Of a stretch of DNA of 64,000 nucleotides, positions 546 through 58,059 are shown piece by piece. Source of the stretch: a virus (Duplodnaviria; Heunggongvirae; Uroviricota; Caudoviricetes); the IMG/VR virus record IMGVR_UViG_3300013426_000020; one strand, 5' to 3'. The notes beneath the pieces are model-generated. The model did no database searches. It saw only the letters and a list, made by a program, of their open reading frames with translations, and was not told the DNA's origin. Both the position numbers and the translations under genes were made by a program. Numbering within the stretch: position 1 is the stretch's first letter; every line of letters starts with the position of its first letter.

Positions 546-640
546 CAAAAAAAAGTTCTTTGAAAATAAGAAACATAATCAGTCAATAACGTAATTACTC
601 TGCATAAGATCCTGGCAGTGAGAGAAGGGACGCTGATTTT

Positions 641-898
641 ATGACAACCATAAACCATTATTACATTGAATGTGATGATGTTTATCCTAGGAAATGGGTA
701 TCATTTATGAAACTCCAGATTGGGAAGGTCAAGTCAATGGAACGTGTCCGTCAGAATGATGTCTTTCGGGATTTCATCCTGCAACCTGAAGACAGGGGAG
801 TCCGTGAGGAGCGGTATGAGACAACACAACAGACGCATAAGAATGACGGAGATGTCTTTTATACCGTCAGTCCGGAAAATGGAAGCGACAGTCTGTAG
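641..898 (+). CDS. hypothetical protein (inside the tRNA cluster; uncertain)
   Basis: 85-aa ORF with no recognisable motifs; it lies between tRNA genes. Confidence 0.25.
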   Translation: MTTINHYYIECDDVYPRKWVSFMKLQIGKVKSMERVRQNDVFRDFILQPEDRGVREERYETTQQTHKNDGDVFYTVSPENGSDSL

Positions 899-1061
899 TT
901 CGTAAATCTGGTTGTCTTTTATATGACATCATTTTGCAGCCATAATAATCGGGACAATTGAAACCGAATCAGTGATGATGTCATCAGCAAGTTTTTCACC
1001 GGGGTTTCCTTGGTTCTTCAGGGTGTGAGTTTTGAAGAATAAAATAAATCTCGGTTTTTAT

Positions 1062-1133
1062 GCCTCTTTAGTATAAAGGTTATTATAACTGACTTGTAAT
1101 CAGTAGATATTGGTTCAATTCCGATAAGAGGCT
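1062..1133 (+). tRNA. tRNA-Thr (anticodon TGT)
   Basis: Acceptor gcctctt/aagaggc, anticodon stem actga/tcagt with loop ctTGTaa, T-loop GGTTCAATTCC. Confidence 0.7.
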
Positions 1134-1264
1134 CAAAAAAATGCAGACCCGTATAGTAAACTTGTAAGTTCTGGGTTTGGAGAAATCCATATAAGACCAT
1201 CTATAACACACTGGATAAAGTCGATTTTGGCATGCTCATAGGTTCAGTTGATGATGGAAACTGC

Positions 1265-1352
1265 ATTTTTTTTTGGAAGGTTGGGAGAGTTGGTTTATTC
1301 CAGAAGTCTTGAAAACTTCCGAACCTGTAAGGGTTCCGCAAGTTCGAATCTT
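1265..1352 (+). tRNA. tRNA-Ser (anticodon TGA), class II
   Basis: Acceptor ggaaggt/accttcc, discriminator G, anticodon loop ctTGAaa, long variable arm, T-loop GTTCGAATC. Confidence 0.75.
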
Positions 1353-1649
1353 GCACCTTCCGCAAAATAATCCCGGTGCAACAGGGATTGACAAGCAGGT
1401 TGCCAATAGGTAGGGGATAACCAATGATGTAATTTCGGTGTTTGATGCCTTTGAATGTCACCAAGTGTCTGTTTGAAGGAACAACATTGATGTAAATCCG
1501 GAGTGAATAATACGGCGGAAAAGTTCAGGTGGGGGTTTGTTGATGATGGTTTGTAGTACCTTGAACATTTGATTTTCCTCACAGAGAAATCCACTTCCCG
1601 GGCATTGTGTGGATGGAAAAATAGAGAACAGTTTCAAAAAACTACAATT

Positions 1650-1731
1650 ACCTGAGTGGGGGAATGGTAGACCCAGAACACTCAAAATGTTCCGCTCAAA
1701 AAGCATATGAGTTCGAATCTCATCTCAGGTA
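1650..1731 (+). tRNA. tRNA-Leu (anticodon CAA), class II
   Basis: Acceptor acctgag/ctcaggt, anticodon stem gaaca/tgttc with loop ctCAAaa, long variable arm, T-loop GTTCGAATC. Confidence 0.7.
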
Positions 1732-1746
1732 CAATTTATTATTGAT

Positions 1747-1929
1747 ATGAAAAAAGTTTGGTACAAAATTACAAATAAATTAGGATGGACAAAATATCAA
1801 TCTTTGGAAAGATATATTGAAGATCAGAAAGAATTTCATTATACACCTGTCAAGAAGATCATAAGAGTAACTGAAGAAGAGTTGTCAGAAGATATCATTG
1901 ATGATGTCAATAAACAAATTGGATGGTAA
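1747..1929 (+). CDS. hypothetical small protein (uncertain)
   Basis: 60-aa ORF sitting between tRNA-Leu and tRNA-Glu. Confidence 0.3.
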   Translation: MKKVWYKITNKLGWTKYQSLERYIEDQKEFHYTPVKKIIRVTEEELSEDIIDDVNKQIGW

Positions 1930-1969
1930 AATGAAAATACAATGATTTTTCAATTGATTTATCATATAT

Positions 1970-2043
1970 GCTCGGTTCATATAATGGTTTAGTATACAAG
2001 ATTTTCATTCTTGTCATGGTCGGTTCGACTCCGCCACCGAGTA
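1970..2043 (+). tRNA. tRNA-Glu (anticodon TTC)
   Basis: Acceptor gctcggt/accgagt (one G-U), anticodon stem caaga/tcttg with loop ttTTCat, T-loop GGTTCGACTCC. The D-arm is weak. Confidence 0.55.
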
Positions 2044-2087
2044 CTAATTTTTATTCTGTCAAATAAAAAAAAAATTATTACAAATTT

Positions 2088-2708
2088 ATGTCAAAATTTA
2101 TGAACACCGAAAAGAGAAACCAGATACTCAAGGAGTTGATGGTTTCTATAAGAAAGAACACACAGAAGTCAAGATGCATTGATGTTTTTGAAGATCTGTT
2201 GAACAACATTGATGACAAAAATGTAGTTGACATAGTCATAACAGATATGACTGTCTTTGTCAGTGAATTTTCAAGACTCTGCAAGGATATTGACAATATG
2301 AAGAACATTGACTTCATTTCAAGAATTCTCACAAAGGAATTCATCAAACCGGAAAAATGTTTCAGGGAATCTAAGGAAATTGCAAAACTTTATCTTGACT
2401 TGAGTGAGATTCTTCTTGGAAAATATACACATTTTCCTTATGTTCCTGAAAAACAGGTTATGTTGTCAAATTCAAACTGTCTCGGCAATCTTCAATACAA
2501 GGAAACATATACTCTTGATGACATTTTGAAGGTATCTAACTATTTCGGAGACTTAACTGACTTGTCAGTAGATGATTTCAAGAAAAAGTATGAACTTGCA
2601 AGGAAAGTTATACTTCTTTATAATTATCTTCCTGCTGTGGTGAAGGCATTCATCCAGACAAAACGAAGAAGTTTCAATCTGGATAGGAACTCGACAAAGT
2701 TCAAATAA
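2088..2708 (+). CDS. hypothetical protein
   Basis: 206-aa ORF; the first + strand gene after the tRNA array. Confidence 0.55.
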   Translation: MSKFMNTEKRNQILKELMVSIRKNTQKSRCIDVFEDLLNNIDDKNVVDIVITDMTVFVSEFSRLCKDIDNMKNIDFISRILTKEFIKPEKCFRESKEIAKLYLDLSEILLGKYTHFPYVPEKQVMLSNSNCLGNLQYKETYTLDDILKVSNYFGDLTDLSVDDFKKKYELARKVILLYNYLPAVVKAFIQTKRRSFNLDRNSTKFK

Positions 2709-2821
2709 ATTACATAAATAATTTGACATCACTCGGAGAGCGTATGTTCTGGTTGACCGCATTACCGTAAATGCGGTATTTTTATGTTTATTGAAGAAAT
2801 ATAATTTGTTATTTTTGAATT

Positions 2822-3871
2822 ATGAAAAAGTTTATTTTTATTTTATTGAGTCTGTTTATGGTACAGTCATGTTTTATAAATGACATAAGAACAGACTATG
2901 AAGGAAATCAGGTCATATCTTTTGAGCCTATTTCAAGAAAACAACACACAAGATCAACACCTTTATCAAAGTATGAATCTACAACAGGAGACTTTGCGGT
3001 CTTTTCATGGTATCAAAGGGGGACTGGAAGTTTTGATCCTGTCAATAATGATGTTGTACTTTATATGGACAATGTTGTATGTTCATATGATGAGATAAAT
3101 GGAAAAGGAACATGGATGCCTGTTACCACTTATTTTTGGCCAAAGAATGGAAAACTCACATTTTCTGCATATTATCCTGTTGGTGATGTGTTTGCTCCTA
3201 ATGTAAATGTGGATACAAAGACAGGATTGAAATTCAATGATTATAACATTGCAAATGCTGTTGATCAGAAGGATTTGATGTTCAGCTCAAGAACATATGA
3301 TAAATCTGCATCTATACATCCAGATGATTTTATTACAACTTATGATGGAGTTGATATATTGTTCAATCATGCTTTGTCAGCAATTTCTTTCACAGTGAAA
3401 TCAAGGGATGATTATAATGGTGTATTACTTTTGAAAAGAATTGAACTTATTGATGTGAAACACAAGGGTTCATTTGATGAGAATCTGACAGATGGATATG
3501 CAGTTAACAAGTCAGTCTGGTCTGTTGATGATGATAATGTTGATTATAAGATATATGAATCAACAGAAACATATGGAACAATAATTGATATGTCTGGTGT
3601 TGTATTCACAGATGCAAATACAGGTATAGTTCTTCCACAGGTTTTTGATGACAATGCAAAGATAAGAATTACATATTACATCAAATATGGTACAGACAAA
3701 TATCTTGAACAAGTCAATGATGTGAAGTTGAAGGATTTGAAGAAGGATGGACTTGTTTCACTTGATGCATGGGAAATGGGAAAATGGTACAAATACAATA
3801 TCACATTTGGTCTGGATCAGATTTATTTTGCACCTGCTATTGAAGAATGGATTGATGTAATTGTACGATAG
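2822..3871 (+). CDS. putative lipoprotein / secreted protein
   Basis: N-terminus MKKFIFILLSLFMVQSC is a signal peptide with a lipobox-like Cys; 349 aa. A TTTGTTATTTTT motif lies just upstream. Confidence 0.6.
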   Translation: MKKFIFILLSLFMVQSCFINDIRTDYEGNQVISFEPISRKQHTRSTPLSKYESTTGDFAVFSWYQRGTGSFDPVNNDVVLYMDNVVCSYDEINGKGTWMPVTTYFWPKNGKLTFSAYYPVGDVFAPNVNVDTKTGLKFNDYNIANAVDQKDLMFSSRTYDKSASIHPDDFITTYDGVDILFNHALSAISFTVKSRDDYNGVLLLKRIELIDVKHKGSFDENLTDGYAVNKSVWSVDDDNVDYKIYESTETYGTIIDMSGVVFTDANTGIVLPQVFDDNAKIRITYYIKYGTDKYLEQVNDVKLKDLKKDGLVSLDAWEMGKWYKYNITFGLDQIYFAPAIEEWIDVIVR

Positions 3872-3900
3872 TCATAAATACATAAAACAATTTATAAGTT

Positions 3901-4113
3901 ATGAACGAATTATCAAAGAATAATCTTATATGGTTCGGTAAGGTGCTTGCATTTGCACTGCCTGTATTCTTTGCAATAATCACATTTGCAGGAATTCTCA
4001 ATGGAATAGTTTCCGGTGGAATTGATTCCTTTTATGGATATGTGGCAGCTTTGAACATAGGTGTTGAAGGTTATTTGTTTTATAATCTTTATAGGAAGTT
4101 ATTCAAGAAATAA
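3901..4113 (+). CDS. small membrane protein
   Basis: 70 aa with two hydrophobic segments. Confidence 0.45.
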   Translation: MNELSKNNLIWFGKVLAFALPVFFAIITFAGILNGIVSGGIDSFYGYVAALNIGVEGYLFYNLYRKLFKK

Positions 4114-4121
4114 CTTAGTTT

Positions 4122-4211
4122 GGAAGATTACCCAAGTGGTGAAGGGGACGGTTTGCTAAACCGTTAGATCGGTCAATTACCGGTGCGGGGGTTCAAATCC
4201 CTCATCTTCCG
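4122..4211 (+). tRNA. tRNA-Ser (anticodon GCT), class II
   Basis: Acceptor ggaagat/atcttcc, discriminator G, anticodon stem acggt/accgt with loop ttGCTaa, long variable arm, T-loop GGTTCAAATCC. Confidence 0.75.
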
Positions 4212-4317
4212 CAAATTATACAATGTTTTTGGTTCAGGGAATGTATATGTCCCTTGAGTGTTCTTATGGACGCAAATGAATCGGAGACAGTTAAATACAA
4301 ATAAAATTTAATGAAGT

Positions 4318-7876: not shown

Positions 7877-9007
7877 ATGATGGAGAACAATTTTTTTCTC
7901 ACCGATCAGATAATAACATATATAGGAAACAAGCGGAAGCTTCTCAATGACATAAATCTGGAAGTTGAACACATACTCAAGGAACTTGGTATTCAAAAAG
8001 GAAAATTGTGTGATTTGTTTTCCGGAAGTGGAATTGTAGCCAGATCAGTGAAGAAATATTCAAACATGCTTTATGTGAATGATTTGGAAAAATACAGTTG
8101 CATAATCAATGACTGTTATCTTACAAATAAAGATGAGTTTGATGAAATAACATATAATACATATCTGGATAAGATTTTGGATTTTCCAGAAGTCGAAGGA
8201 ATAATAACAAAAAACTATGCTCCAGAAGATGATAATGACATAAAATATGGAGAAAGAGTATTTTACACACATGATAATGCTGTTATTATTGATACCATAC
8301 GTACTGCAATAGATGAATATGTTCCAGATGAATATAAGAAGTTCTATCTGGCTCCATTATTATATGAGGCATCAATACATACAAATACAAGTGGAATATT
8401 CAAAGGATTCTACAAGTCAAAGGAGACTGGTATAGGCAAATTTGGTGGTGATGGGGAGAATTCATTGTCCAGAATATGTGGAAAGATTTCATTGAAGAAA
8501 CCCATATTTTCAAATTATGACTGTAATAAGATTATCTTGAATGGGGATGCGAATACTGTGGCAAGAACATTAAAAAATCTTGACATAACATATCTTGATC
8601 CTCCATATAATCAACATCCATACAGTTCAAATTATTTTATGCTGAATACTATAATTGAGAACAAGATTGGTGATAATTTGAGTAAGGTTTCAGGTATTCC
8701 AGAAGACTGGAACAAATCAAGTTATAATAGAAAGAATAGTGCATTGAAATCTTTTGAAGATCTTATATCCAATCTTGATTCAAAATATATGATAATCTCA
8801 TATAACAATGAAGGAATCATATCATATGATGATATGTGTAATATGCTTTCAAAATATGGAACAGTGGAGATAAACAATATAGAATATAATGCTTTCAAGG
8901 GAAGTCGCAATTTGAATGGAAGAGACAAACACACAATAGAATATTTGTTTGTCTTAAAAAAAGACGGACCAAGAAGAATTATCATAAAAAATGAAGGACT
9001 TTTTTAA
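7877..9007 (+). CDS. N6-adenine DNA methyltransferase, Dam/D12 class
   Basis: Motif X YIGNKRKLL, motif I FSGSGIV, motif IV DITYLDPPYN, in the alpha-class order. Confidence 0.85.
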   Translation: MMENNFFLTDQIITYIGNKRKLLNDINLEVEHILKELGIQKGKLCDLFSGSGIVARSVKKYSNMLYVNDLEKYSCIINDCYLTNKDEFDEITYNTYLDKILDFPEVEGIITKNYAPEDDNDIKYGERVFYTHDNAVIIDTIRTAIDEYVPDEYKKFYLAPLLYEASIHTNTSGIFKGFYKSKETGIGKFGGDGENSLSRICGKISLKKPIFSNYDCNKIILNGDANTVARTLKNLDITYLDPPYNQHPYSSNYFMLNTIIENKIGDNLSKVSGIPEDWNKSSYNRKNSALKSFEDLISNLDSKYMIISYNNEGIISYDDMCNMLSKYGTVEINNIEYNAFKGSRNLNGRDKHTIEYLFVLKKDGPRRIIIKNEGLF

Positions 9008-12610: not shown

Positions 12611-13189
12611 ATGTCAAGACCGAACAAATGTATAAAGGATGAGACAGGGAAGGAATACTGGATTTCAAGATCTGTTGTGGTGATTCCTGTGGTGTTCAAA
12701 TATGATATTCAAAATGATGACATATATGCCCTTGTGGAGAGAAGGGGTCCTGCGGTGTCACATCCCGGAGAATGGTGCTGTCCGTGTGGGTATATAGACT
12801 GGGATGAGAGTCTTACGGAAGCATGTGTAAGGGAAGTACGGGAAGAAACAGGTCTTGTGCTTGACGAAGAAAGAATAAATCTGTTTGAAGTGAACAGCGA
12901 CAAGTACACAAAAAACCAGACTGTGGATTTGTGGTACGAGTGCTGGATACCCGAAGAGTCCGATTTTCATATGGACAAGATCGAGACGAAGACCGAGATT
13001 CTTGATGTGAGATGGCTGAAGGTGGCGCATATGGGAAATAATGATTCCGGAAAGAATATTCTGACCATATATAAGAAATCGATATATGACGGATACGGCA
13101 TATGGGCGTTCAAGTCTCATCATACACATGTCATAGATATGTTGAAGTCAAGGTTTTCAATGTGTGATATAAAGGAAGTTGATGAGTAA
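12611..13189 (+). CDS. Nudix hydrolase
   Basis: Nudix box GYIDWDESLTEACVREVREETGL. Confidence 0.7.
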   Translation: MSRPNKCIKDETGKEYWISRSVVVIPVVFKYDIQNDDIYALVERRGPAVSHPGEWCCPCGYIDWDESLTEACVREVREETGLVLDEERINLFEVNSDKYTKNQTVDLWYECWIPEESDFHMDKIETKTEILDVRWLKVAHMGNNDSGKNILTIYKKSIYDGYGIWAFKSHHTHVIDMLKSRFSMCDIKEVDE

Positions 13190-25147: not shown

Positions 25148-25341
25148 GCAGGACCATAAAACATCAGGACATATATGATGTCCTGCATGGAAGAAAAGTT
25201 TCTTACAGAAAGAGAATGAAAATATATAAATGGTTTGACAGAGTGAACTTTTGGGATCCCGACTTCAAGATAAACTACAGAAAGAGAAAGGACTGGAGAC
25301 ATGGCGGAATGTCCCGGATAAAGGCAAGGAGATACAAATGA
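25144..25341 (+). CDS. hypothetical basic small protein
   Basis: 65 aa, K/R-rich. Confidence 0.4.
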   Translation: MSRTIKHQDIYDVLHGRKVSYRKRMKIYKWFDRVNFWDPDFKINYRKRKDWRHGGMSRIKARRYK

Positions 25342-26063
25342 TTACATCAAGGGAGCACAGAATAGAGATATTGAATGAGAACATCAATATCTGCAATGAC
25401 AAGAATTTGAAACCAGAATTCCGGGGTGGACTGGTGTTTGGACCTACACATGTAGCATGTGCGGAAAATTTCATCAGGGAGGATGGTGATGAATATGACA
25501 GGTCGAGAGTCATATTCGAGCAAACCGACACGATAACATCCGCACTGAAATACAGAAGAAAAACAGGTGTTGACTTTCTTGTGTTCGCATCGTCCAGACA
25601 CTATGGCGGCGGGGTGTGGAACGGATCAAAGGCACAGGAGGAGGACATTTTTCTCTGCACCGATCTCTGTATGAATCATAAGGATGCACAGGAGAAATTC
25701 TATCCGTTGAACGGATGTATGACAATGGACTGTCATATCATCAGGGACTCGAATTTTGAAGTTCTGAAATATCCTGTCAATGCAAGGGCTTTCTTCTGTC
25801 CGGCACCAAATCTCAACTTGACAAATTCTGGTCATGACTTCTGGACAAGGATGTGTACATTTTCTGATACGACTTTTGACTATGCGAAGGGGGAATGTCT
25901 GGTGATAGGCGCATGGGGATGCGGAGTGTTCAAAAACAATCCTGAAGAAGTTGCGGATATGTTCAGGAAATCAATGTCCATGTTTCTGGAAGACTACAGG
26001 AATGTGGTTGTGTCCATACCTGATGAAAATATGTTAAACATATTCAAGAAAAAATTATCATGA
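25338..26063 (+). CDS. bacterial-type poly(ADP-ribose) glycohydrolase-like macrodomain (DUF2263/TIGR02452)
   Basis: PARG signature GGG-X8-QEE (HYGGGVWNGSKAQEEDIF) plus GAWGCGVFKNNPEEVA. Internal ATG of ORF 25251..26063. Confidence 0.65.
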   Translation: MITSREHRIEILNENINICNDKNLKPEFRGGLVFGPTHVACAENFIREDGDEYDRSRVIFEQTDTITSALKYRRKTGVDFLVFASSRHYGGGVWNGSKAQEEDIFLCTDLCMNHKDAQEKFYPLNGCMTMDCHIIRDSNFEVLKYPVNARAFFCPAPNLNLTNSGHDFWTRMCTFSDTTFDYAKGECLVIGAWGCGVFKNNPEEVADMFRKSMSMFLEDYRNVVVSIPDENMLNIFKKKLS

Positions 26064-26509
26064 AACACAGTTCAATAATAACAGACATAAAGATATGGCA
26101 TGAATCATATGATGATTACTGTCCGTTCTATCTTCACACAAGAAAGGGTGATGAATATATGACATGGGAATGGGAATTTCTTGGAATTTTCAGGATGGAG
26201 AAGAAGAAACATATTGCAGATCAGGATATGTTCGCATGCAAATGGTGGTCGGAAGGAAGATTGTATACAAACAATGAGTTAGAATTTGAGAATGATAAGT
26301 ATGAATACAGGAATGGAAAGTTCATCAGTCTGGCACATATGAGATTCTTGACCGGAGACGGAAAAACACATGTCTTATGGTTTCACAATGACAAGGATTG
26401 TTCAAGGGCATATGAATGGTTGAACGGAATATTGAAATCATATGGACTCAAGGACATAAATGACATCAAAAAATTCCTGAAGGATGAATTCGGTGCCATA
26501 GAATTATAA
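26060..26509 (+). CDS. hypothetical protein
   Basis: 149-aa ORF. Confidence 0.5.
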   Translation: MKHSSIITDIKIWHESYDDYCPFYLHTRKGDEYMTWEWEFLGIFRMEKKKHIADQDMFACKWWSEGRLYTNNELEFENDKYEYRNGKFISLAHMRFLTGDGKTHVLWFHNDKDCSRAYEWLNGILKSYGLKDINDIKKFLKDEFGAIEL

Positions 26510-26670
26510 AAGTTGTTATCTTTGTATATGATGAGACACATTTATTTTATTATAAACAACTTCACAGGATCAAGATATGGATGTTGGAGTTCAATAGAAG
26601 AGGCAGAATGTTACAGAAACATGCTTGATGACTGGATGAACTGGGATATAGGAATGGAAGAAAATTATTT

Positions 26671-28002
26671 TTGAAAATGAATAAACTGACACTTGAGAAC
26701 ATAAGGATAGAAGACCACAAGATTTATGACACTGACGGAAACTTTGTGGGTGAGATACTGTATGAGTATATTCGTGGTTCACGTTTATACAATATAAATC
26801 TTGAAGGATTCGATTCTGACGGCAATCCGCTTTCGGATGAAGATCATGGCGGAGTCTATATAATGACCGACAACAGGAAACTTGGTCTGGGACTTGACTA
26901 CCAGAACGAGATAAAGGATGAGAAGAATGACAACTGTCTATGGGAACTGGGCAGGTTTATGGAGCTTGCACTGACTTCCAACCCGACCGTTCTTGAAGCT
27001 TTGTTCGTTCCGGATGACAAGGTGATATATGAACATCCTGTGATGAAGGAGTTGAGGAGTCACAGGAATGAGTTTGTCTCGAAGGCGTGTTTCAAGCCTT
27101 ACTATATGTACTCTAAGAGTCAAATTTCCAAATCCAGAGGACAAAACAAGAAGATTCACTGGGACATCGAACAGATGAAGAGAAAGACTCCATTGGACTT
27201 CTGTTATACTTTCAAAGGTCAGGGATCCCAACTCATATCCGACTGGCTTGATGAGAATGGACTTGAACAGAGAAACTGTGGACTGGTGAATGTCCCGAAC
27301 ATGCCTGATATGTATGGAGTATATTATGACTGGGGTCAACATTTCAGGTTGAATGATATTGATATGATGAAATTCAGGGACAGTGACGAATATGAGAAGA
27401 TGAGACATTTCATTTCTTGTTTTTATTTTGACGGATATGCAGATGACTACAGTCTGGAGATATGGTACGAGAAGAATTCTGTCCCGAAGGGAGGATATAC
27501 AGGTATCATATCTCAAAATGAGGACTCCAACACCATAAGATACTGTTCTATTCCTGATAAGAATGAAAGACCGGTATGTTATATGTCATACAATGCCAAT
27601 GGATACGCGACACATTGCAGAAAATACAAAGAATATCTTGATTGGAAGAACCACAGGAACAAGGCGAGATACGAGTCGAATCTTGAAGGAGAGAAGTCCG
27701 GAAATCCGGATCTCATGTATGACTCCAAGAACATGATGCACTGTTTCAGGATGATTTCCATGGCGAAGGAGATTGCGGAAGGAAAGGGAATAATACTCGA
27801 CAGGACAGGAATCGACAAAGATTTCCTTATGGATGTGAGAATGAGAAGGTACGGTTATTCCGAACTGATGAAGAGACTTGAAAAGATGTCAAGAGAAATG
27901 GATGAGTCCATATGGAACTCAGTAATCAAAGAAAACATTGATCCGGAATTTGTGAACAATCTTCTGCTTGATATAAGAAAACAATGGAGGAAAAATATAT
28001 GA
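26671..28002 (+). CDS. putative pol-beta-superfamily nucleotidyltransferase-fold protein
   Basis: N-terminal RGSRLYNINLEGFDSD matches hG[GS]-x9-13-DxD. 443 aa. Confidence 0.35.
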   Translation: MKMNKLTLENIRIEDHKIYDTDGNFVGEILYEYIRGSRLYNINLEGFDSDGNPLSDEDHGGVYIMTDNRKLGLGLDYQNEIKDEKNDNCLWELGRFMELALTSNPTVLEALFVPDDKVIYEHPVMKELRSHRNEFVSKACFKPYYMYSKSQISKSRGQNKKIHWDIEQMKRKTPLDFCYTFKGQGSQLISDWLDENGLEQRNCGLVNVPNMPDMYGVYYDWGQHFRLNDIDMMKFRDSDEYEKMRHFISCFYFDGYADDYSLEIWYEKNSVPKGGYTGIISQNEDSNTIRYCSIPDKNERPVCYMSYNANGYATHCRKYKEYLDWKNHRNKARYESNLEGEKSGNPDLMYDSKNMMHCFRMISMAKEIAEGKGIILDRTGIDKDFLMDVRMRRYGYSELMKRLEKMSREMDESIWNSVIKENIDPEFVNNLLLDIRKQWRKNI

Positions 28003-28181
28003 TTTGCAAATTCAACGACGGATACGGTGCGGTATTATGCTCAAGATGTGGAAAGATAGTGTATTTGGGATCGCAAATCCCAAGTGCCATACAAAAACTC
28101 ATAATGAACAGCAAGGACACATCAGAACTTCCTGATATTTTTTGTCCTGAATGTTCGGATGAACTTGACCATATTTTATAA
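27999..28181 (+). CDS. small zinc-ribbon protein
   Basis: CSRCGK...CPECSDE. Confidence 0.4.
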   Translation: MICKFNDGYGAVLCSRCGKIVYLGSQIPSAIQKLIMNSKDTSELPDIFCPECSDELDHIL

Positions 28182-28212
28182 TTTGTGAATTCTCCAGATT
28201 TCTTCAAGAAAA

Positions 28213-28244
28213 TTTGGAGAAATCATTTTTATATGCTATTTTTG
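28213..28244 (+). promoter_or_regulatory. class A promoter (variant -7 TATTTTTG)
   Basis: TTTG at 28213, 20 nt, TATTTTTG, then leader tatcaacaaataaaac. Confidence 0.45.
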
Positions 28245-28269
28245 TATCAACAAATAAAACAACATCATT

Positions 28270-28668
28270 ATGGACTATGGTTTTTACATTATTGAAAGAC
28301 ATGAAGATTATCTTGTAGTTTCAAAAACTCCTGCCGGGCACAATCGGAAAATGATGGACATGGAATATGTGAACAGGAACTTCAGGATTTGCGGAGACAG
28401 ACTGGAAATAAAACCGAGAGTCGAGGCAAGAATGAAGAAGATTTCAAAACTTCTGGACAAGGCGGTCATGACCTTCATTCTTATGGTTGTCATGAAGTCG
28501 GATACCGAAAAGGAAGTACTGAAAAAGGAGCTGATGAAGAATGCGGGGAAGATATCTGTGCTGACCGGAAAGAATATGAATGAAGTGCTTTCCATAATAA
28601 GGGATTATGCTGTAGAAATATCTGGGAAAAACATGACACATGAGTCAAACAATACGGAGAAACAATAA
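28270..28668 (+). CDS. hypothetical protein
   Basis: 132-aa ORF. Confidence 0.5.
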   Translation: MDYGFYIIERHEDYLVVSKTPAGHNRKMMDMEYVNRNFRICGDRLEIKPRVEARMKKISKLLDKAVMTFILMVVMKSDTEKEVLKKELMKNAGKISVLTGKNMNEVLSIIRDYAVEISGKNMTHESNNTEKQ

Positions 28669-28697
28669 ATAATGATATAAGCAAACAAACATTTATC

Positions 28698-29126
28698 ATG
28701 GGAATTATTATTGTAACGACATTGTTCTTCATAGGGATAATGTTCTTTGACTTCTGGTATTGCAGGAAGATGGAGATAATGAAATACATAAGCATCGGCA
28801 TAACCCTTGCCATATTGAAGACATCATTGATGTTTCTTCTTCTTATACCGAAACATGGAGTCATAGACCAGAAGGACTATCTGTCCGCATTGGGTGCCAA
28901 GACTTTCATAGAAACCGAACAGATACTCACACAGGATGACCTTGATATGTTCAGACTGTCCATAAGGGAGATAAACGAATATCACAGTCAGAGGAAGGAC
29001 ATAGAGAACAGACATGAAAGATTCTGGGATGGACTGTTCTATAGTGAGAAGTCTCTTGAGAAGTATCCGGACATATCAGTGGACAATATGAGAATACACA
29101 AGGACATAGACAGCATATGCGAGTAG
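28698..29126 (+). CDS. membrane protein
   Basis: 142 aa with two N-terminal transmembrane segments. Confidence 0.5.
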   Translation: MGIIIVTTLFFIGIMFFDFWYCRKMEIMKYISIGITLAILKTSLMFLLLIPKHGVIDQKDYLSALGAKTFIETEQILTQDDLDMFRLSIREINEYHSQRKDIENRHERFWDGLFYSEKSLEKYPDISVDNMRIHKDIDSICE

Positions 29127-29629
29127 TGTTCCTTGACATAGACGGTGTTCTCAACTACACTAAATGGTATATTGATGACAGGAATCCCGGAAATCTTTAT
29201 GGACAGGAAGGCGACATAGACCCATTGTGCATAGAAAGGGTGATGAAAATCTGCAATCTCACAAATGCGAAAGTTGTCGTGTCGTCGGACTGGAGAATAG
29301 ACTGGGAAGGAACAAAAAAGAGACTTTCAAGAATGGGTCTGGATGAAAACTATGTGATTGACAAGACTCCGGAATTCATCTGGAACAATCTGAATGATCC
29401 GGAATATCTTGAGGATGACTATGATACTGTATATGAATATACCAGAGGTGCAGAGATAGACGAATGGCTGAAACATAATGAAGTTGAAAATTATGTGATC
29501 CTCGACGACAGGACAGACTTCACAAAGGAACAGTATGGGCATTTCATCCATATTGATCCTTATGAGGGACTGACTGACAAGGATGTTGAACGGGCAATAA
29601 AGATATTGAATTATGACAATTGCGGTTGA
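29117..29629 (+). CDS. HAD-superfamily phosphatase
   Basis: Motif I VFLDIDGVLN. Confidence 0.5.
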   Translation: MRVVFLDIDGVLNYTKWYIDDRNPGNLYGQEGDIDPLCIERVMKICNLTNAKVVVSSDWRIDWEGTKKRLSRMGLDENYVIDKTPEFIWNNLNDPEYLEDDYDTVYEYTRGAEIDEWLKHNEVENYVILDDRTDFTKEQYGHFIHIDPYEGLTDKDVERAIKILNYDNCG

Positions 29630-29990
29630 TTTTGACGGGACGGTAGTAACACATGAATATCCCAGAACAGGAAAGGACATAGGTGCCGTGCCGGTATTGA
29701 AGAAGATGTCTGATGATGGACACAAGATTGTACTCAACACCATGAGATCAGGTCAGGAACTGATGAATGCCATGAACTGGTTCTATGACAACAATATACC
29801 GTTATATGGTGTCAATCATACTCCAGGACAGGAGAAATGGACAAGATCACCCAAGGTCTATGCACATCTCTATATAGATGACTGTGCTCTGGGCTGTCCA
29901 GTATTGACGGACGAAAACGGAAAGAAATATGTGGACTGGAGAAAGGTGTCAGAAATTATGGGTTATGATTATGATGAACTTATAAAATAA
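29613..29990 (+). CDS. HAD-like phosphatase (second, adjacent)
   Basis: Motif I IAVDFDGTVV. Confidence 0.45.
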   Translation: MTIAVDFDGTVVTHEYPRTGKDIGAVPVLKKMSDDGHKIVLNTMRSGQELMNAMNWFYDNNIPLYGVNHTPGQEKWTRSPKVYAHLYIDDCALGCPVLTDENGKKYVDWRKVSEIMGYDYDELIK

Positions 29991-30000
29991 AAAATACATT

Positions 30001-30408
30001 ATGAAAAAGATATTAAAATTCAATGACTTTGTGAATGAATCGTTGAATGTTGATGCAAGAACAAACATTTACAACATATTCTTCATTATGTTGAGGATCA
30101 TCGACAGGAAGGAGTCAAGATATCATCTCACCGGTGGTCCAATGATTGATGAAGACAGACTTCCGGATGAGGATGATCTCCAGTTGTGGATGGACTATGC
30201 AGATTCAGAAAGCAATGATGGAAGCATAAGGTTCAAAGTCATGAACATCGGAGAAGAAGACATGAATGAAATCAGGGAGAAGTATCTTGACTATATTCCG
30301 GGGGTGGAATATGACGATGACGACTATTCAATGTTCTCTGTTATGGTCAACAGTTTCATCAGGAACTATGATGACATAAGGGACTGTTTCGACTGGATGA
30401 CTTTGTAA
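30001..30408 (+). CDS. acidic hypothetical protein
   Basis: 135-aa ORF. Confidence 0.5.
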   Translation: MKKILKFNDFVNESLNVDARTNIYNIFFIMLRIIDRKESRYHLTGGPMIDEDRLPDEDDLQLWMDYADSESNDGSIRFKVMNIGEEDMNEIREKYLDYIPGVEYDDDDYSMFSVMVNSFIRNYDDIRDCFDWMTL

Positions 30409-30457
30409 TGAAGTTCACAGAAATCAAAAAAAAAATCTTCAAATTCTTGACAAAAGA

Positions 30458-30489
30458 TTTGGAGATTTCATTTTTTTGTCGTATCTTTG
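30458..30489 (+). promoter_or_regulatory. class A promoter
   Basis: TTTG at 30458, 20 nt, TATCTTTG at 30482. Confidence 0.5.
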
Positions 30490-30515
30490 TGTCAGGAAAT
30501 AAAACAAGAGACATT

Positions 30516-30686
30516 ATGAAAGCAAAGGAACTTGCCGAAAGGCTTATGGAACATCCGGACTTTGAAGTCGAATTCAGATGGTTTGACTGTTTTGAAGGAG
30601 GATGCAGAACATTTACTGATATAGGGATAGATGACATAGGATATTCCGATAAGGTGATAGTGCTTGACGGGGAACTTGAACAATAA
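30516..30686 (+). CDS. small hypothetical protein
   Basis: ATG at the end of the conserved leader; internal start of ORF 30408..30686. Confidence 0.4.
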   Translation: MKAKELAERLMEHPDFEVEFRWFDCFEGGCRTFTDIGIDDIGYSDKVIVLDGELEQ

Positions 30687-30704
30687 CAATAAAAATACAA
30701 AATC

Positions 30705-30947
30705 ATGGGATCATCAAAGAAACAGATTATATCGTCCATAAGAAAGACGATGACAGAAATGGAAGGAATTGAAATCAAGGGTATGGAGATAGACGGGGAG
30801 AAGATAGGAGGACTTGTCATGGATGAAGGAGAACCTGGCCTGACGAATACGGACGGTAACTGGTTCTTCCCTCTGGAAGAACTGACAGTCAATGAACTGA
30901 AGACAGTCAAGACCATGCTGAACAAAGTGAAGGAACTCGGTTTATAA
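30705..30947 (+). CDS. hypothetical protein
   Basis: 80-aa ORF. Confidence 0.45.
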   Translation: MGSSKKQIISSIRKTMTEMEGIEIKGMEIDGEKIGGLVMDEGEPGLTNTDGNWFFPLEELTVNELKTVKTMLNKVKELGL

Positions 30948-30962
30948 AGATATAAAAAAATT

Positions 30963-31148
30963 ATGGAAGACAAGAAATTGTTTATTGAAGTCTACAACAG
31001 ACTGAAATCACAGTACAAAAGACTGGACATGTCAGGTACACTGGTATACTGGGATGGAGAAGCGATGTTCAACATCGAGGGATACAATCTGGGATACAAC
31101 ATCTACAGACTGGGCAAACTTCTCAATGACAAGGGTGAATTCGAATAG
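30963..31148 (+). CDS. hypothetical protein
   Basis: 61-aa ORF. Confidence 0.4.
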   Translation: MEDKKLFIEVYNRLKSQYKRLDMSGTLVYWDGEAMFNIEGYNLGYNIYRLGKLLNDKGEFE

Positions 31149-31150
31149 AT

Positions 31151-31369
31151 ATGAAAAAGATAATAAAACTGAATCTTGAAGGAGAAGATATAAGATATCT
31201 CAATCCGTCATGCATAAAGGAAGTGAAGAAGAACAAATCAAAATACAACAATGATATTTGCGTCACACTTGTTTTACAAGATGACAACATCATCACCAGA
31301 TTATATGATAATAACAAGGATGCAGACATGTTTGTCGATTATGTCATCGAATGCATAGAAAGTTCATAA
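31151..31369 (+). CDS. hypothetical protein
   Basis: 72-aa ORF. Confidence 0.4.
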   Translation: MKKIIKLNLEGEDIRYLNPSCIKEVKKNKSKYNNDICVTLVLQDDNIITRLYDNNKDADMFVDYVIECIESS

Positions 31370-31372
31370 GAT

Positions 31373-31597
31373 ATGGAGACGATACGGATACTTGAAGAAA
31401 ATGGATGCACAAGAGTGTTCAATCCCATATATGTGAAGGACATTGGGCTGATACCTCCGGATGCAAATGACATCTACTGGACTGTGTTGCTGAACTTCAA
31501 TGACGGTGGGACAGTCGTAAGACAGTTTCCGTCAAGGGACAAGGCCGAAGTCTTCTTCAGGTATGCAGACAAGTGTGTAAAGTCAATAGGAAAATAA
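31373..31597 (+). CDS. hypothetical protein
   Basis: 74-aa ORF. Confidence 0.4.
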   Translation: METIRILEENGCTRVFNPIYVKDIGLIPPDANDIYWTVLLNFNDGGTVVRQFPSRDKAEVFFRYADKCVKSIGK

Positions 31598-31604
31598 AAA
31601 AGAA

Positions 31605-32414
31605 ATGAAAGGATTTTTGAAGATTTTTATGGTCATTATGACCGCAATGATAATTTCTTCCTGTTATTCCGTGACTCCGGGAGCGGGGGAAGAAGGAATT
31701 TTGATAGACAAACCGTTGTTGTTCGGTCATGGTGGAGTAAGGGAGAAGACCGTGGAACCCGGCAGGAAATGGGTATGGTTCACCACCGAATATGTAATCA
31801 TCAAAACGGTTCCGGTGAGATATGACATAGAATTTGATGACATAATGTCGAATGACAACACCCCATTGGACTATGCGACATACATAACCTTACAGATAGA
31901 CAAGGGAAAGGCACCTATGCTTCTACAGAACTATGGAGAAGACTGGTTCTCCAATAATGTTGAGGCAAAATACAGGAACTTTGTGAGAGAGGAAGTGTCA
32001 AAGTATGATCCATTTGACCTGATGTCCAACAGGGAGGTGATAACTGATATCGACAGACAGGTGAAGAAAAAAATTGACACATATTTCGGTGAACTGAACT
32101 CAAAGTCTGAGTTTCCCGTGACATGTACAGAAATCATCACCGGCAGGGCAAAACCGAATCAGCTCCAGCTCGACGAGATGAACAAGACTGCGGCAGCTAT
32201 TCAGGCGAAGCAGACTCAAGAAAGGACAGTGGAGATGGAGCAGGCCAGAGAGAAGGCGGAACGACAAAGGGCACTTGCAGACAAGGCATATATGAAAGAG
32301 ATGAACCTGTCACAGGATCAGTTCATCATGCTGAAGATTGTAGAGAAATCAAATCCGAACATCGATGTGGTAATGGGTGGAAGTGCAAGCTCGATGTGGA
32401 ACATAAGAAGATAA
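31605..32414 (+). CDS. lipoprotein, possible SPFH/band-7-like domain
   Basis: Signal plus Cys (MKGFLKIFMVIMTAMIISSC); C-terminal coiled-coil ERTVEMEQAREKAERQRALADKAY. Confidence 0.35.
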   Translation: MKGFLKIFMVIMTAMIISSCYSVTPGAGEEGILIDKPLLFGHGGVREKTVEPGRKWVWFTTEYVIIKTVPVRYDIEFDDIMSNDNTPLDYATYITLQIDKGKAPMLLQNYGEDWFSNNVEAKYRNFVREEVSKYDPFDLMSNREVITDIDRQVKKKIDTYFGELNSKSEFPVTCTEIITGRAKPNQLQLDEMNKTAAAIQAKQTQERTVEMEQAREKAERQRALADKAYMKEMNLSQDQFIMLKIVEKSNPNIDVVMGGSASSMWNIRR

Positions 32415-47112: not shown

Positions 47113-47116
47113 AAAC

Positions 47117-47302
47117 ATGATGACTTTATTGATTATACTGATGTGTCTTGTGCTTGTCCTGCTTTTGACAGGACTCAAGATATCTGATGGAATTCTGGGA
47201 ACAATTATACAGATTCTGGTAATCATACTTGCATTGACTTTCATCATCATGTTCATAGGAATGATTATGTTCATGTTTTGTTTGATATTCACATTGTTTT
47301 GA
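47117..47302 (+). CDS. small membrane protein
   Basis: Internal ATG of ORF 47057..47302. Confidence 0.4.
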   Translation: MMTLLIILMCLVLVLLLTGLKISDGILGTIIQILVIILALTFIIMFIGMIMFMFCLIFTLF

Positions 47303-48020
47303 ATTCATAATTTTTGTTTTTGTTTGCATGGAAGATCAGGAAGTGATTCTTGATCTTCTTTTTTATACACAACAGGATACAACAAACCGGGACTGACTCA
47401 AATCATTTGAAAAAAGACTGAACCAGACCAGAATTCACCGGTCAATAAACCAGAAGCAAGTATGTGATTATAAACTATTTACTGGAAAAACTGTAATTGA
47501 CTATGAAAAACTGTAATCAAGTTATGATATTTGATATCAAGAAATCAAACTATATGACTTTATTTTTGACTTGTATGAAAACTGAATGACGATTATGAAA
47601 CTCACATATGATTATATGAAACTATGATGATTATAAAGATCATATACACTATGTAACTCACACAAAAGATTTTGACTAACAAAACTTATATGGACTATAA
47701 ACTATGTTGCGATGCGAAACTTACGGAAAAACTATATGACTGAAAAATGAACCGATTGATTATACTATATAACTGATGCAAATAAACTTCATTGACTTAC
47801 AAACCGACTATATCGACTATCATACTGATGTATATAAACTTTCCGTTCAACTATTATATTTATGTGATCGACATTTTCAGTTTTTCATATTTTCTTTGAA
47901 TGTTTCAAAACAGACATTTTTCACATTTCAAGAATTTTTTCCTAAAGGGATTTTTCAAAAATGGTCAGTCAAGAGTGTACTAAAAGGGACATTTCATATA
48001 TTTCATAAAAAAGTTCATCA
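47303..48020. repeat. non-coding AT-rich region with short direct repeats (iteron-like)
   Basis: gaaaaactgtaat occurs twice (about 47480 and 47504), aaactatatgact occurs twice (about 47548 and 47730), and there are many tatgaaa/ctatat units. No ORF. Confidence 0.4.
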
Positions 48021-48024
48021 AAAA

Positions 48025-48056
48025 TTTGGAAGTTTGAAATAATTGTTGTATCTTTG
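48025..48056 (+). promoter_or_regulatory. class A promoter
   Basis: TTTG at 48025, 20 nt, TATCTTTG at 48049. Confidence 0.5.
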
Positions 48057-48082
48057 TATCAACAAATAAAAGCAAAGACATT

Positions 48083-48531: not shown

Positions 48532-48563
48532 TTTGGAAGTTTGAAATAAAAGCGTTATCTTTG
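48532..48563 (+). promoter_or_regulatory. class A promoter
   Basis: TTTG at 48532, 20 nt, TATCTTTG at 48556. Confidence 0.5.
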
Positions 48564-48605: not shown

Positions 48606-49175
48606 ATGAAAGTTTATGAGATTGTCTATGTAAAGGCAAACGGAGAAATCACCACGGAGATTTTCAAGAACTTGAAAGCTGCAAGGGAAAGGATGTTGAG
48701 AATAGGAAGATGCACGGAGGAAATTGTTCGTAATGCATATAATGCTGCATCGGTCAAGATTGAAGACAACAAATACACCGTCAAGGGTTTCAATGACGAC
48801 AAAAAGACTGTCGTGGAAATCACAGTCAATGAGAAGGAAGTCAAGGAAGTAAGCAGATATGTCGTAAGAGTTCCCGTGAAGACCTATGTCGATGTACAGG
48901 TGGATGCGATGGATGAGAGTGAGGCAAAGAAGATTGCACAGGATTCCGGACTGTGGGATGAGGATCAGCTGTTGCTGAACTGTGAACCGAGTGGAGAACC
49001 AGAGATGGTGAAGACAAGAAAGGTTGAGGTTGAATGGGATGTGGATGACGAGGATGAACTTGATGATCTTCCGGAGGTTGTCGATGTTCCGGAGGACATA
49101 TGCGAGGACGATGTGGCGGACTGGCTGTCTGACAATTATGGATATTGTGTGAGTGACTGGGGATATATGGAATAA
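48606..49175 (+). CDS. hypothetical protein, acidic C-terminus
   Basis: 189-aa ORF. Confidence 0.5.
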   Translation: MKVYEIVYVKANGEITTEIFKNLKAARERMLRIGRCTEEIVRNAYNAASVKIEDNKYTVKGFNDDKKTVVEITVNEKEVKEVSRYVVRVPVKTYVDVQVDAMDESEAKKIAQDSGLWDEDQLLLNCEPSGEPEMVKTRKVEVEWDVDDEDELDDLPEVVDVPEDICEDDVADWLSDNYGYCVSDWGYME

Positions 49176-49187
49176 AGAAATAAGCAG

Positions 49188-49284
49188 ACTGATATGGGTC
49201 TAATGGAATAAGACCACGAGACGGATGCATACGTCTATGTCTCTATATGAGACCGGGATACAGGTTCGAGTCCTGTTGTCAGTC
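49188..49284 (+). tRNA. tRNA-like gene with non-canonical (8-nt) anticodon loop and long variable arm; identity unresolved
   Basis: Acceptor actgata/tgtcagt (one U-G), U8, D-stem ggtc/gacc, anticodon stem agacg/cgtct with loop gatgcata, variable stem gtctc/gagac, T-arm acagg-TTCGAGT-cctgt. T-run downstream. Confidence 0.4.
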
Positions 49285-49461
49285 CTATACGTTCATAATC
49301 AGTTTTTTTTGACGGGACGGAAATGTTCCGCAATGGAATGAAGTCCGTCCCTTTATGTTGAAAATATCTTTTATTCATTAAATATTAATATTATAATTTG
49401 ACATTGTCTCCCGTATGTTGTGAAATATGTGGGAGATTTTTTATATAAAAATATGAAAAAA

Positions 49462-49493
49462 TTTGCATATATGAAATGATTGGTGTATCTTTG
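49462..49493 (+). promoter_or_regulatory. class A promoter
   Basis: TTTG at 49462, 20 nt, TATCTTTG at 49486. Confidence 0.45.
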
Positions 49494-49522
49494 TGATACA
49501 AAACAAATAAACAAACAAGGTT

Positions 49523-50336: not shown

Positions 50337-50368
50337 ATTTGGATATTTCATTTTTTATCCTTATCTTT
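50337..50368 (+). promoter_or_regulatory. class A promoter ('ggata...tttttatcc' subfamily)
   Basis: TTTG at 50337, 20 nt, TATCTTTG at 50361. Confidence 0.5.
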
Positions 50369-50412
50369 GTATCAACAAAAGAAACAAGATAAACATATAA
50401 AAACAAAAGATT

Positions 50413-57197: not shown

Positions 57198-57812
57198 ATG
57201 AAAGATTATATTGATTATATTAAGGATGCTCAAAATAAACAAAGTGAATGGTATTATAATCAAAAGAATGAATGGTGGAAAGATGAATGTCTTAAAGAAA
57301 AAATGGACATAAAGGGAGACTATCTTGAAACTGTTAAACTCAAATCAAATGATGAAAGGAATGATGTGTCCTTATTCACAAACCATACAAATGTGAAGAA
57401 CAGTGAGTGGTGTGTTCTTTTTTATGCACTTGGTCAACATCTTATTGACTGGTGCATATCCCATAAGAAGAATGTTTATAGTTGTCTGGTGAAGATAAAC
57501 AGGACTATGGATGGTCTTGATGATGTGTATGACATCAATGTTTCTGTAACTGCCAGAGATATGGATGATGTTATATTTGAGTGGAAACATATTGATGATC
57601 CTGAATTCAATCTTTATGGAGAAGAAGTATGTGATATGTTTGACAGGTTCATAACTGCACATAAGAATGATATTCCGATTGACTGGAATTATTTTGCTTT
57701 CAGTCTTGATTGCCTTGATGACAGTTGTGAATACGGGGCTGCATCGGATGGATGCATGATGTTGGGAAATATTGAAGGAACAGAATATGATGAATATGTT
57801 TATTGCATGTAG
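57198..57812 (+). CDS. hypothetical protein
   Basis: 204-aa ORF. Confidence 0.5.
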   Translation: MKDYIDYIKDAQNKQSEWYYNQKNEWWKDECLKEKMDIKGDYLETVKLKSNDERNDVSLFTNHTNVKNSEWCVLFYALGQHLIDWCISHKKNVYSCLVKINRTMDGLDDVYDINVSVTARDMDDVIFEWKHIDDPEFNLYGEEVCDMFDRFITAHKNDIPIDWNYFAFSLDCLDDSCEYGAASDGCMMLGNIEGTEYDEYVYCM

Positions 57813-58007
57813 TTATAAATATAGTATATAAAAATTTGAAATCATATGTCTCCTGAAAACCTTTGTCTCAAATGTCACAAGTGTAAGAAATTTGAAGAAA
57901 ACCTGTGTGATGACTTCACTGTTCTTGATTGTCTTGATTCTGATCTTGATGTCAATTTTGTGGAAAATGAAAAAATGGATAAATAATCCATTTTTTTTTT
58001 GATTTTG

Positions 58008-58039
58008 TTTGGAAATTTGAAATTTTGTTGTTATCTTTG
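58008..58039 (+). promoter_or_regulatory. class A promoter
   Basis: TTTG at 58008, 20 nt, TATCTTTG at 58032. Confidence 0.45.
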
Positions 58040-58059
58040 CAGAAATAAAAATAAAGGTC

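Follow-up and report, generated by a model that had tools for sequence, protein, structure and literature searches.

We examined a tRNA-like RNA gene in 64,000 nucleotides (nt) of viral DNA (Caudoviricetes; IMG/VR record IMGVR_UViG_3300013426_000020), a stretch referred to here as the window. Because covariation among its relatives, shuffled and slid controls and an unguided RNAalifold prediction all support the same fold, the element is taken as real: on this comparative evidence it is a functional structured RNA under selection and not a decaying pseudogene. The aligned sequences further indicate that its anticodon arm is replaced by a three-way module, made up of a 2-base-pair (bp) junction helix, a side hairpin and a 5-bp hairpin with an 8-nt loop. 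We regard it as very probable that the RNA is functional, tRNA-shaped and non-decoding. With less assurance, we favor the view that it is a phage-encoded, non-decoding mimic of a tRNA, transcribed along with the gene before it and matured like a tRNA; more tentatively, it would be bound in place of one.

Conservation and fold of the element

The element occurs in seven distinct full-length versions and one truncated copy, all of them in the same genomic slot of related metagenomic phage contigs, and the seven full-length homologue sequences were aligned (alignment A4). Exact-protein look-ups of the two open reading frames (ORFs) that flank the element led to about 30 near-identical contigs in ENA assemblies, where the element is identical except in L005 and L007. 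The diverged relatives listed in Table 1 were reached via homologues of the flanking proteins and by one metagenome pattern scan. Two of the sample names indicate pig-gut metagenomes.

The sequence-only reading of this DNA had drawn a full cloverleaf with a 7-bp acceptor stem containing a U-G pair, U8, a D arm, an agacg/cgtct stem, a gtctc/gagac hairpin and a T arm, and all of these parts are present and backed by covariation. Across the seven homologues, 98.0-99.5% of alignment cells are paired and 13-14 pairs carry compensatory double changes; for the cloverleaf as first drawn, pairing is 98.0% and both sides have changed in 14 of 29 pairs. Broken down by helix, the double-changed pairs number 3 of 7 in the acceptor stem, 1 of 4 in the D stem, 3 of 5 in the anticodon-like stem, 2 of 5 in the side hairpin and 3 of 5 in the T stem. 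None of 500 shuffles reached the pairing and covariation of the element, and slid controls, in which the partners were moved by 1-3 columns, gave 28-43% pairing; for the cloverleaf as first drawn the controls reached 30-43%, with 0-1 double-changed pairs. RNAalifold, run unguided, yields the same structure. The element is 73-88% identical between lineages, compared with 54-82% for the flanking DNA, which drops to about 55-59% in the more diverged comparisons, and values down to 34% for the upstream protein.

All seven pairs of the acceptor stem, ACUGAUA/UGUCAGU with its one U-G pair, are kept (98% of cells paired), and the three pairs altered on both sides went from U-A to C-G, from A-U to G-C and from U.G to A-U. 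The D, anticodon-like, side-hairpin and T stems are each paired in 100% of cells. U8 and G9 lie at 49195 and 49196. The single pair change in the D stem, G-C to A-U, is found in L032, and the GG of the D loop is present in six of the seven homologues, L020 having UG instead. The D stem is extendable by U49201-A49211; position 14 is a U that is able to pair with A21, and through this pairing the D stem may reach 5 bp. Since position 14 is U and not A, the usual U8-A14 contact is absent. In the side hairpin the two pairs changed on both sides are U-A to C-G and C-G to G-C. The T loop reads UUCGA(A/G)U in 7/7 homologues, and an invariant U ends the GGAU equivalent of the variable loop.

G49187, at position -1, is able to pair with C49284, and this pair covaries loosely (G-C in four versions, A-U in one and A.C in two), so that some lineages may have an 8-bp acceptor stem. 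A tRNA-His-like identity based on G-1:C73 was considered and set aside, as the G-C pair of four variants is A.C or A-U in the others and is not conserved. The six tRNAs called elsewhere in the window by ARAGORN all have U at position -1, and tRNA-Leu(caa) among them begins with an A1-U72 pair.

The sequence-only reading had also noted a 6-nt spacer before the T stem. The CGGGAU sequence is there, but its first two bases pair with an ACG linker that had gone unmentioned. Because these linker bases pair with the spacer bases, the side hairpin is best described as an insertion into a lengthened stem, with a small three-way junction. The junction helix closes the branched module that stands in the place of an anticodon arm, and its C-G pair has become U-A in L032. 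The truncated copy, L026, lacks the 16-nt side hairpin: there the stem closes up, the junction helix is contiguous, and the GGUAUACA loop and the T arm are kept. L032, a close relative of L026, retains the side hairpin.

Two further observations concern the same parts of the molecule. Within 49219-49253, a GAGAC in the region of the 5' strand of the apical stem is also able to pair with the GUCUC that forms the 5' strand of the side hairpin (89.7% paired); this alternative helix may reflect mere strand similarity or may be an alternative conformation. In L005 and L007 (3582-3681 in each, corresponding to 49271/49272 of the window), the T loop or stem has one extra C, TTCGAGTCCCTGT, in a phage that is otherwise near-identical, and the hairpin of the 3' trailer has a T insertion and a C-to-T change. 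The extra-C T arm is either a tolerated variant or an impaired allele.

The case from the single sequence alone is weak: its minimum free energy fold is the cloverleaf, but the z-score is only -1.6. tRNA-detection software, named as a check by the sequence-only reading, gave a divided answer. In default mode ARAGORN called six ordinary tRNAs at 464-4212 of the window and did not call the element, nor did it make a call in six of the seven homologue loci scanned. Its one default call among them was tRNA-Pro(agg) at 1715-1810 of L032, which we rejected since the anticodon stem has an A.A mismatch and is not conserved across the family. The relaxed-mode call, tRNA-Ile(gat), was likewise rejected for a mismatched stem that is not conserved. 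So was the intron-mode call, tRNA-Arg(tct) with a 9-nt "intron", whose GAGAC/GUCUC stem has A.C mismatches in three of six sequences; the helix of this intron model is 89.7% paired, versus 100% for the hairpin model.

Rfam missed the element at the gathering threshold with default filters, and with permissive filters only, its tRNA model RF00005 scored the element at 29.7 bits against a gathering score of 29, skipping the whole middle as a 35-nt insertion (35-37 nt with the homologue alignment included). Among the homologues this model gave 28.6 bits for L013 and no reported match for L014, L020, L024 and L032. At the gathering score Rfam recovered 4 of the 6 phage tRNAs; the two that escaped it are Ser(tga), at 1275-1363, and Leu(caa), at 1650-1732. 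No Y RNA, YrlA, tmRNA or ribozyme model of Rfam came close in a scan of 49000-49500 at E<=10, and the YrlA model, which the sequence-only reading had put forward, has no match in the window. A covariance model of the family (R1) scored 114.9 bits at the element and found a single copy, with no second one in the window.

Relatives were also sought outside the contigs described above. Queries of GenBank phages with the DNA and the neighbouring protein returned no relative, only generic T-arm matches. In IMG/VR, exact and degenerate DNA patterns gave only chance matches or none, and protein-guided scans with both neighbours gave no relatives. We found nothing describing the element in the literature on phage tRNA-like RNAs with expanded loops or on pseudo-tRNAs.

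Table 1. Parts of the element, its relatives and the neighbouring or related features (window coordinates unless a contig is named).
Feature	Position	Strand	Remarks
Whole tRNA-like RNA gene	49187-49285	+	Position -1 (G), cloverleaf, N73 (C49284) and invariant C49285; Rfam RF00005 match at 49188-49284
Acceptor stem, 5' strand	49188-49194	+	ACUGAUA; partner 49277-49283
D arm	49197-49215	+	Stem GGUC/GACC (49197-49200 with 49212-49215); loop with G18-G19
Linker	49216-49218	+	ACG; C49217-G49255 and G49218-C49254 form the 2-bp junction helix, paired in 7/7
Anticodon-like hairpin	49219-49236	+	5-bp stem AGACG/CGUCU (49219-49223 with 49232-49236)
8-nt loop	49224-49231	+	GAUGCAUA
Side ("variable") hairpin	49239-49253	+	GUCUC-UAUAU-GAGAC (49239-49243 with 49249-49253)
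"Spacer"	49254-49259	+	CGGGAU; bases 1-2 pair with the linker; GGAU corresponds to a 4-nt variable loop
T arm	49260-49276	+	ACAGG-UUCGAGU-CCUGU; canonical T loop
Acceptor stem, 3' strand, and 3' end	49277-49285	+	UGUCAGU (49277-49283), then N73 C and invariant C; CCA not encoded
Diverged contigs with the element			L013, L022; L014; L020; L016, L019, L023; L024; L032-L034
Distant copy	L026 1-62		5' end cut by contig edge
TATCTTTG promoter-like motif	48556-48563	+	Before the 189-aa ORF; likely transcript start
Upstream acidic ORF, 189 amino acids (aa)	48606-49175	+	Stop codon 11 nt before the element
Hairpin GGGACGG...CCGUCCC, then UUUAUGUU	49314-49351	+	3' trailer
Intrinsic-terminator-like hairpin and U tract	49406-49447	+	Would end the transcription unit before the next TATCTTTG (49486)
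NUDIX	12611-13189		
PARG-like protein	25251-26063		
RlaP nucleotidyltransferase	26671-28002		
HAD_SAK_2	29117-29629		
Band_7/SPFH protein	31605-32414		
DUF2828/DUF7788/vWA Ro-like protein	59371-60951		"RNA-binding protein" in phage databases

The eight-nucleotide loop

The sequence-only reading had drawn attention to an anticodon loop of eight nucleotides, an observation that proved sound: the loop is 8 nt long in every homologue, with the consensus G-R-U-R-Y-A-Y-A. It reads GAUGCAUA in the window, GGUAUACA in five lineages that include the distant L026 and L032, and GAUAUACA in L020. In tRNAs that decode, position 33 is U and position 37 a purine. In the loop family, under any numbering, there is a purine before the triplet or a pyrimidine after it, U33 and a purine at 37 never occur together, and no triplet is shared. 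Divided 2+4+2, the loop has A or G at position 33, U or C at position 37, and a core of UGCA here and UAUA in the relatives. Since the loop sequence is not shared, the stem is branched and lengthened, and the U8-A14 contact is missing, we conclude that the middle of the molecule is not an anticodon arm.

Each of the two main loop types is a self-complementary hexamer, AUGCAU here and GUAUAC in most relatives, set between a G and an A. The two types are unlike at four loop positions, and symmetrically so, with the palindrome kept. Such a palindrome is reminiscent of kissing-loop dimerisation hairpins, for example those of retroviruses. It is conceivable, and in our judgment distinctly unlikely, that the element represents a previously undescribed class of phage tRNA mimic that would form a kissing dimer via the loop palindrome and act as an anti-defence decoy or scaffold in a conflict over tRNA. 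Several observations argue against dimerisation: the self-duplex reaches only -6.9 / -6.8 kcal/mol, which is the 11th percentile of all G-N6-A loops, and the palindrome is broken in L020 (-0.6 kcal/mol). Loop positions 2 and 7 could instead pair inside the loop (A-U to G-C).

We also considered whether the palindrome has a cause at the DNA level, as a restriction or methylation site. This was rejected, as the window shows neither depletion nor enrichment of the hexamers (ATGCAT, 35 observed vs. 39.7 expected; GTATAC, 13 vs. 9.1). Many other 6-bp palindromes are strongly avoided there (CTGCAG, 1 vs. 15.5 expected; GTGCAC, 0 vs. 6.1; GTCGAC, 0 vs. 5.7), which would fit avoidance of restriction sites. 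Methylase genes are present in the window as well: a D12-class adenine methyltransferase at 7877-9007 and, at 14-427, part of a C5 cytosine methylase.

Transcription, gene context and interpretation

The octamer TATCTTTG occurs 23 times on the + strand of the window and three times on the - strand (for example at 48556-48563, 49486-49493 and 50362-50369). At the two instances checked, 48556 and 49486, it precedes by 30-50 nt the start of an ORF, these being the ORFs on either side of the element. It is likely a phage promoter motif, and we take it to be the Bacteroidota-type TAnnTTTG -7 motif of the known Bacteroides promoter consensus. No TATCTTTG lies between the upstream ORF, whose stop codon is at 49173-49175, and the element. 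Because the element has no promoter motif of its own, it would be transcribed together with the upstream gene. Two terminator-like hairpins follow downstream. The sequence of the hairpin at 49314-49351 is conserved only in the closer relatives, and L019 and L032 have different hairpins in its place. The 3' trailer as a whole (49286-49352) consists of UUCAUAAUCAG, a run of eight U at 49303-49310 and then the hairpin, and is conserved at the sequence level in L013, L014, L020 and L022; in some lineages the mature RNA may be extended at its 3' end.

The six genuine tRNAs of the phage (464-4212) all end in N73 and a single C followed by A-rich DNA, with no encoded CCA. The element shares this N73-C end, and the C is invariant in 7/7 homologues.

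Neighbouring genes were examined as well. The 189-aa protein encoded upstream and the 202-aa neighbour belong to no Pfam or PHROG family, and the other nearby ORFs scanned gave no family either. For the 189-aa protein AlphaFold gave a low-confidence model (pLDDT 64.6), to which no PDB structure matched at E<=0.001. This protein is very acidic, and its C-terminal motif DWLSDNYGYCV..W is kept down to 32-38% overall identity; the last residues of the motif are seen again in the short ORF that L019 has in place of the gene. Further upstream, about 970 nt (47113-48082) have no gene called in most related contigs and one 61-aa call in some, and here contain an 88-aa ORF (47776-48042); RNA genes in this interval were examined by the window-wide Rfam scans only. 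The ORFs of the phage, read under table 11, look contiguous.

Elsewhere the phage encodes RlaP together with HAD_SAK_2, which is a "Swiss Army Knife" HAD phosphatase, as well as a DUF2828 "RNA-binding protein" and the six-tRNA array. The RNA-repair and ADP-ribose-type genes form a cluster in 25251-32414, with the NUDIX and DUF2828 proteins farther off. Pfam finds DUF2828, DUF7788 and a weak VWA_2 in the protein at 59371-60951, with no TROVE domain at E<=0.01, and homologues of this protein are present in 705 GenBank phage records. The host may belong to the Bacteroidota, to judge from the promoter-like TAnnTTTG motifs and from the presence of a fimbrillin-like protein and a BspA-type repeat protein. 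Gene sets of this kind are associated with the repair of tRNAs damaged by host nucleases in phage-host conflict (PMC7824862), and RlaP has been characterised (PMC12776372). The RNA-repair genes suggest a role for the element, too, in a conflict over tRNA.

We propose that the RNA would be transcribed as the tail of the mRNA of the 189-aa gene, that its 5' end would be cut by RNase P and that its 3' end would be produced by trimming enzymes. The CCA would be added by the CCA-adding enzyme, as on the phage's own tRNAs, a step we infer because the encoded N73-C end is shared with them. This maturation route seems to us reasonably probable. The RNA would then fold into an L shape. It could occupy, as a decoy or competitor, a host factor directed at tRNA, for example a defence nuclease that cleaves tRNAs, or alternatively serve as an RNA partner of the phage RNA-repair proteins (RlaP, the SAK-type HAD phosphatase and the Ro-like DUF2828 protein), with the conserved apical loop as a specific contact surface; this decoy or partner role is put forward tentatively. 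The general idea of a tRNA mimic or decoy, already present in the sequence-only reading, thus survives, but its YrlA form does not. Phage tRNA genes have usually been read as codon-usage helpers, and lately as substitutes for host tRNAs destroyed by defence nucleases. A body recognisable by tRNA enzymes, joined to a swapped decoding end, points to a third use, mimicry without translation. Should the RNA prove to act as a decoy, or to assist RNA repair as a cofactor, the phage-host conflict over tRNA would gain an RNA-based participant. Standard tRNA finders skip or mislabel such genes, one relative having been called tRNA-Pro(agg).

Several points weigh against the favored explanation. The family is small, consisting of seven variants from one phage clade, and was not found in IMG/VR or among GenBank phages; moreover, when sequences are related, covariation counts can run higher than the true number of independent changes. 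With U at position 14, the canonical U8-A14 contact is precluded. L005 and L007 have the extra C in the T loop or stem, L020 has UG in the D loop and L026 is without the side hairpin, so that some copies may be impaired, or the constraints may be looser than those on a tRNA. The neighbouring genes offer no functional clue, and both the maturation pathway and the decoy or partner role are deduced from sequence.

Among the other explanations, the element may be an mRNA processing or stability signal, in which an RNase P cut after the stop codon of the 189-aa gene would set the 3' end of the mRNA and the small RNA would be a by-product. The mascRNA element defines the 3' end of MALAT1 in a similar way. 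The close spacing fits this explanation, with the element 11 nt past the stop codon, no promoter-like motif between them and terminator-like hairpins downstream, and the 189-aa ORF is a conserved neighbour in most relatives. However, the acceptor and T domain would suffice for such a signal, and the apical stem, the length and pattern of the loop, the junction helix and the side hairpin are conserved or co-varying as well. In addition, the L019/L023/L024 lineage keeps the element even though a short ORF replaces the full-length upstream gene, and L015 has a homologue of the 189-aa protein without the element. We consider a pure processing signal unlikely, though it may account for part of the picture. 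It is extremely improbable that the element lacks RNA function and is just what is left of a tRNA, whether a pseudogene in decay or, as the sequence-only reading had allowed, a host tRNA remnant at an attP-type site. The aberrant anticodon region would fit a remnant, as would the extra C in the T arm of one strain, the loss of the side hairpin in one relative and the loss of G18 in another. Yet compensatory changes are found in every helix, the element is better conserved than its flanks beside a neighbouring protein that is only 34% identical, and it is full length and not a 3' fragment. Neither half could be traced to a host tRNA: in exact pattern searches of GTDB (one genome per species), the D-arm pattern had 0 matches in 185,579 species genomes, and the pattern of the T arm plus 3' acceptor strand had one unrelated chance match, in an Acidimicrobiales metagenome-assembled genome that has no tRNA there. 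The neighbouring ORFs scanned, which were a subset of the ORFs, yielded no integrase family, with no search aimed at integrases.

The sequence-only reading had also offered a frameshift or suppressor-type tRNA, and the intact acceptor, D and T arms, a 3' end like that of the phage's real tRNAs and an Rfam tRNA score just over threshold would all suit a true, aminoacylated tRNA whose 8-nt anticodon loop, as in the classical frameshift-suppressor tRNAs of textbooks, reads a four-base codon or brings about +1 frameshifting or suppression in phage genes. The anticodon, however, varies within the family (UGCA or GCA here, UAUA or AUA in relatives), and the loop has a purine at position 33 or a pyrimidine at position 37, either of which is, by textbook accounts, exceptional in decoding tRNAs. 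The arm is also branched and two base pairs longer than normal, and default ARAGORN made no call in the window or in six of the seven homologue loci, its L032 call being placed on an unconserved, mismatched stem. A decoding function is accordingly very improbable. We judge it only slightly less doubtful, and still very unlikely, that the element is a Y-RNA-like partner of the DUF2828/vWA protein (59371-60951), resembling YrlA in action and lying outside that family, with tethering or gating in RNA repair or decay as its task. The phage does encode this DUF2828/DUF7788/vWA "RNA-binding protein" together with RNA-repair genes, and Ro/TROVE proteins work with a tRNA-like RNA partner (PMC4201824, PMC7824862). 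No other candidate RNA was found beside the DUF2828 gene, where neither a Y RNA nor any other Rfam RNA was detected in 57800-62000. Against such a partnership, the element lies 10 kb from that gene and known YrlA RNAs adjoin theirs; models for YrlA and Y RNA fail to match it at a cutoff as loose as E<=10; its tRNA modules stand in the normal order and not in the permuted order T-acceptor-D; it lacks both the long stem in which the 5' and 3' ends pair and the GNCGAA motif; and the protein has no TROVE domain.

Relation to known systems

The element resembles a canonical tRNA (RF00005) in its 7-bp acceptor stem, U8, D arm with GG, UUCGARU T loop and N73-C end. It differs in that its loop has 8 nt and not 7, with no conserved anticodon and no U33/R37 arrangement, and in its 3-nt linker, 2-bp junction helix, side hairpin off the anticodon arm and U14. 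Frameshift-suppressor tRNAs, both sufD-type and engineered quadruplet decoders, also have an 8-nt loop on a 5-bp stem. These tRNAs combine a defined anticodon of four bases with U33 and a purine at 37, whereas in the element the flanking positions are reversed or absent and the loop differs among close relatives.

With YrlA and other bacterial Y RNAs the element has in common that it is non-coding, has tRNA-like T and D arms and belongs to a genome with a Ro-like vWA protein and RNA-repair genes. The YrlA of M. smegmatis is cut by RNase P and receives CCA (PMC4201824), which is the route proposed here for the element. YrlA is circularly permuted, in the order T arm, closed acceptor stem-loop and D arm; its 5' and 3' ends form a Ro-binding stem with the GNCGAA motif, and it adjoins rsr (PMC4201824). 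In contrast, the order in the element is acceptor, D, middle, T and acceptor, and its free ends form only a 7-8-bp acceptor stem.

The differences from tRNA-like RNAs of other organisms are likewise marked. Bacillus cereus "tRNA-Other" is a chromosomal tRNA-like RNA whose anticodon region is non-standard and whose role is regulatory rather than in bulk translation. It is not known to have a branched anticodon module or an 8-nt loop, belongs to another organism, is unrelated in sequence and is not known to be phage-borne. The mascRNA of MALAT1 and the viral tRNA-like RNAs of murid herpesvirus 4 (MHV68) are cloverleaf look-alikes that are processed by tRNA enzymes, CCA-tailed and non-decoding; each is located within a longer transcript or at its end, with further hairpins after it. 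They are eukaryotic or herpesviral products of Pol II or Pol III, unrelated in sequence to the element, and their anticodon loops are not known to be conserved, whereas in the element the loop pattern is conserved and the arm is branched. tRNA look-alikes are thus already a known kind of RNA; the element falls in no Rfam family beyond its borderline tRNA match, and the conserved, branched replacement of its anticodon arm is distinctive.

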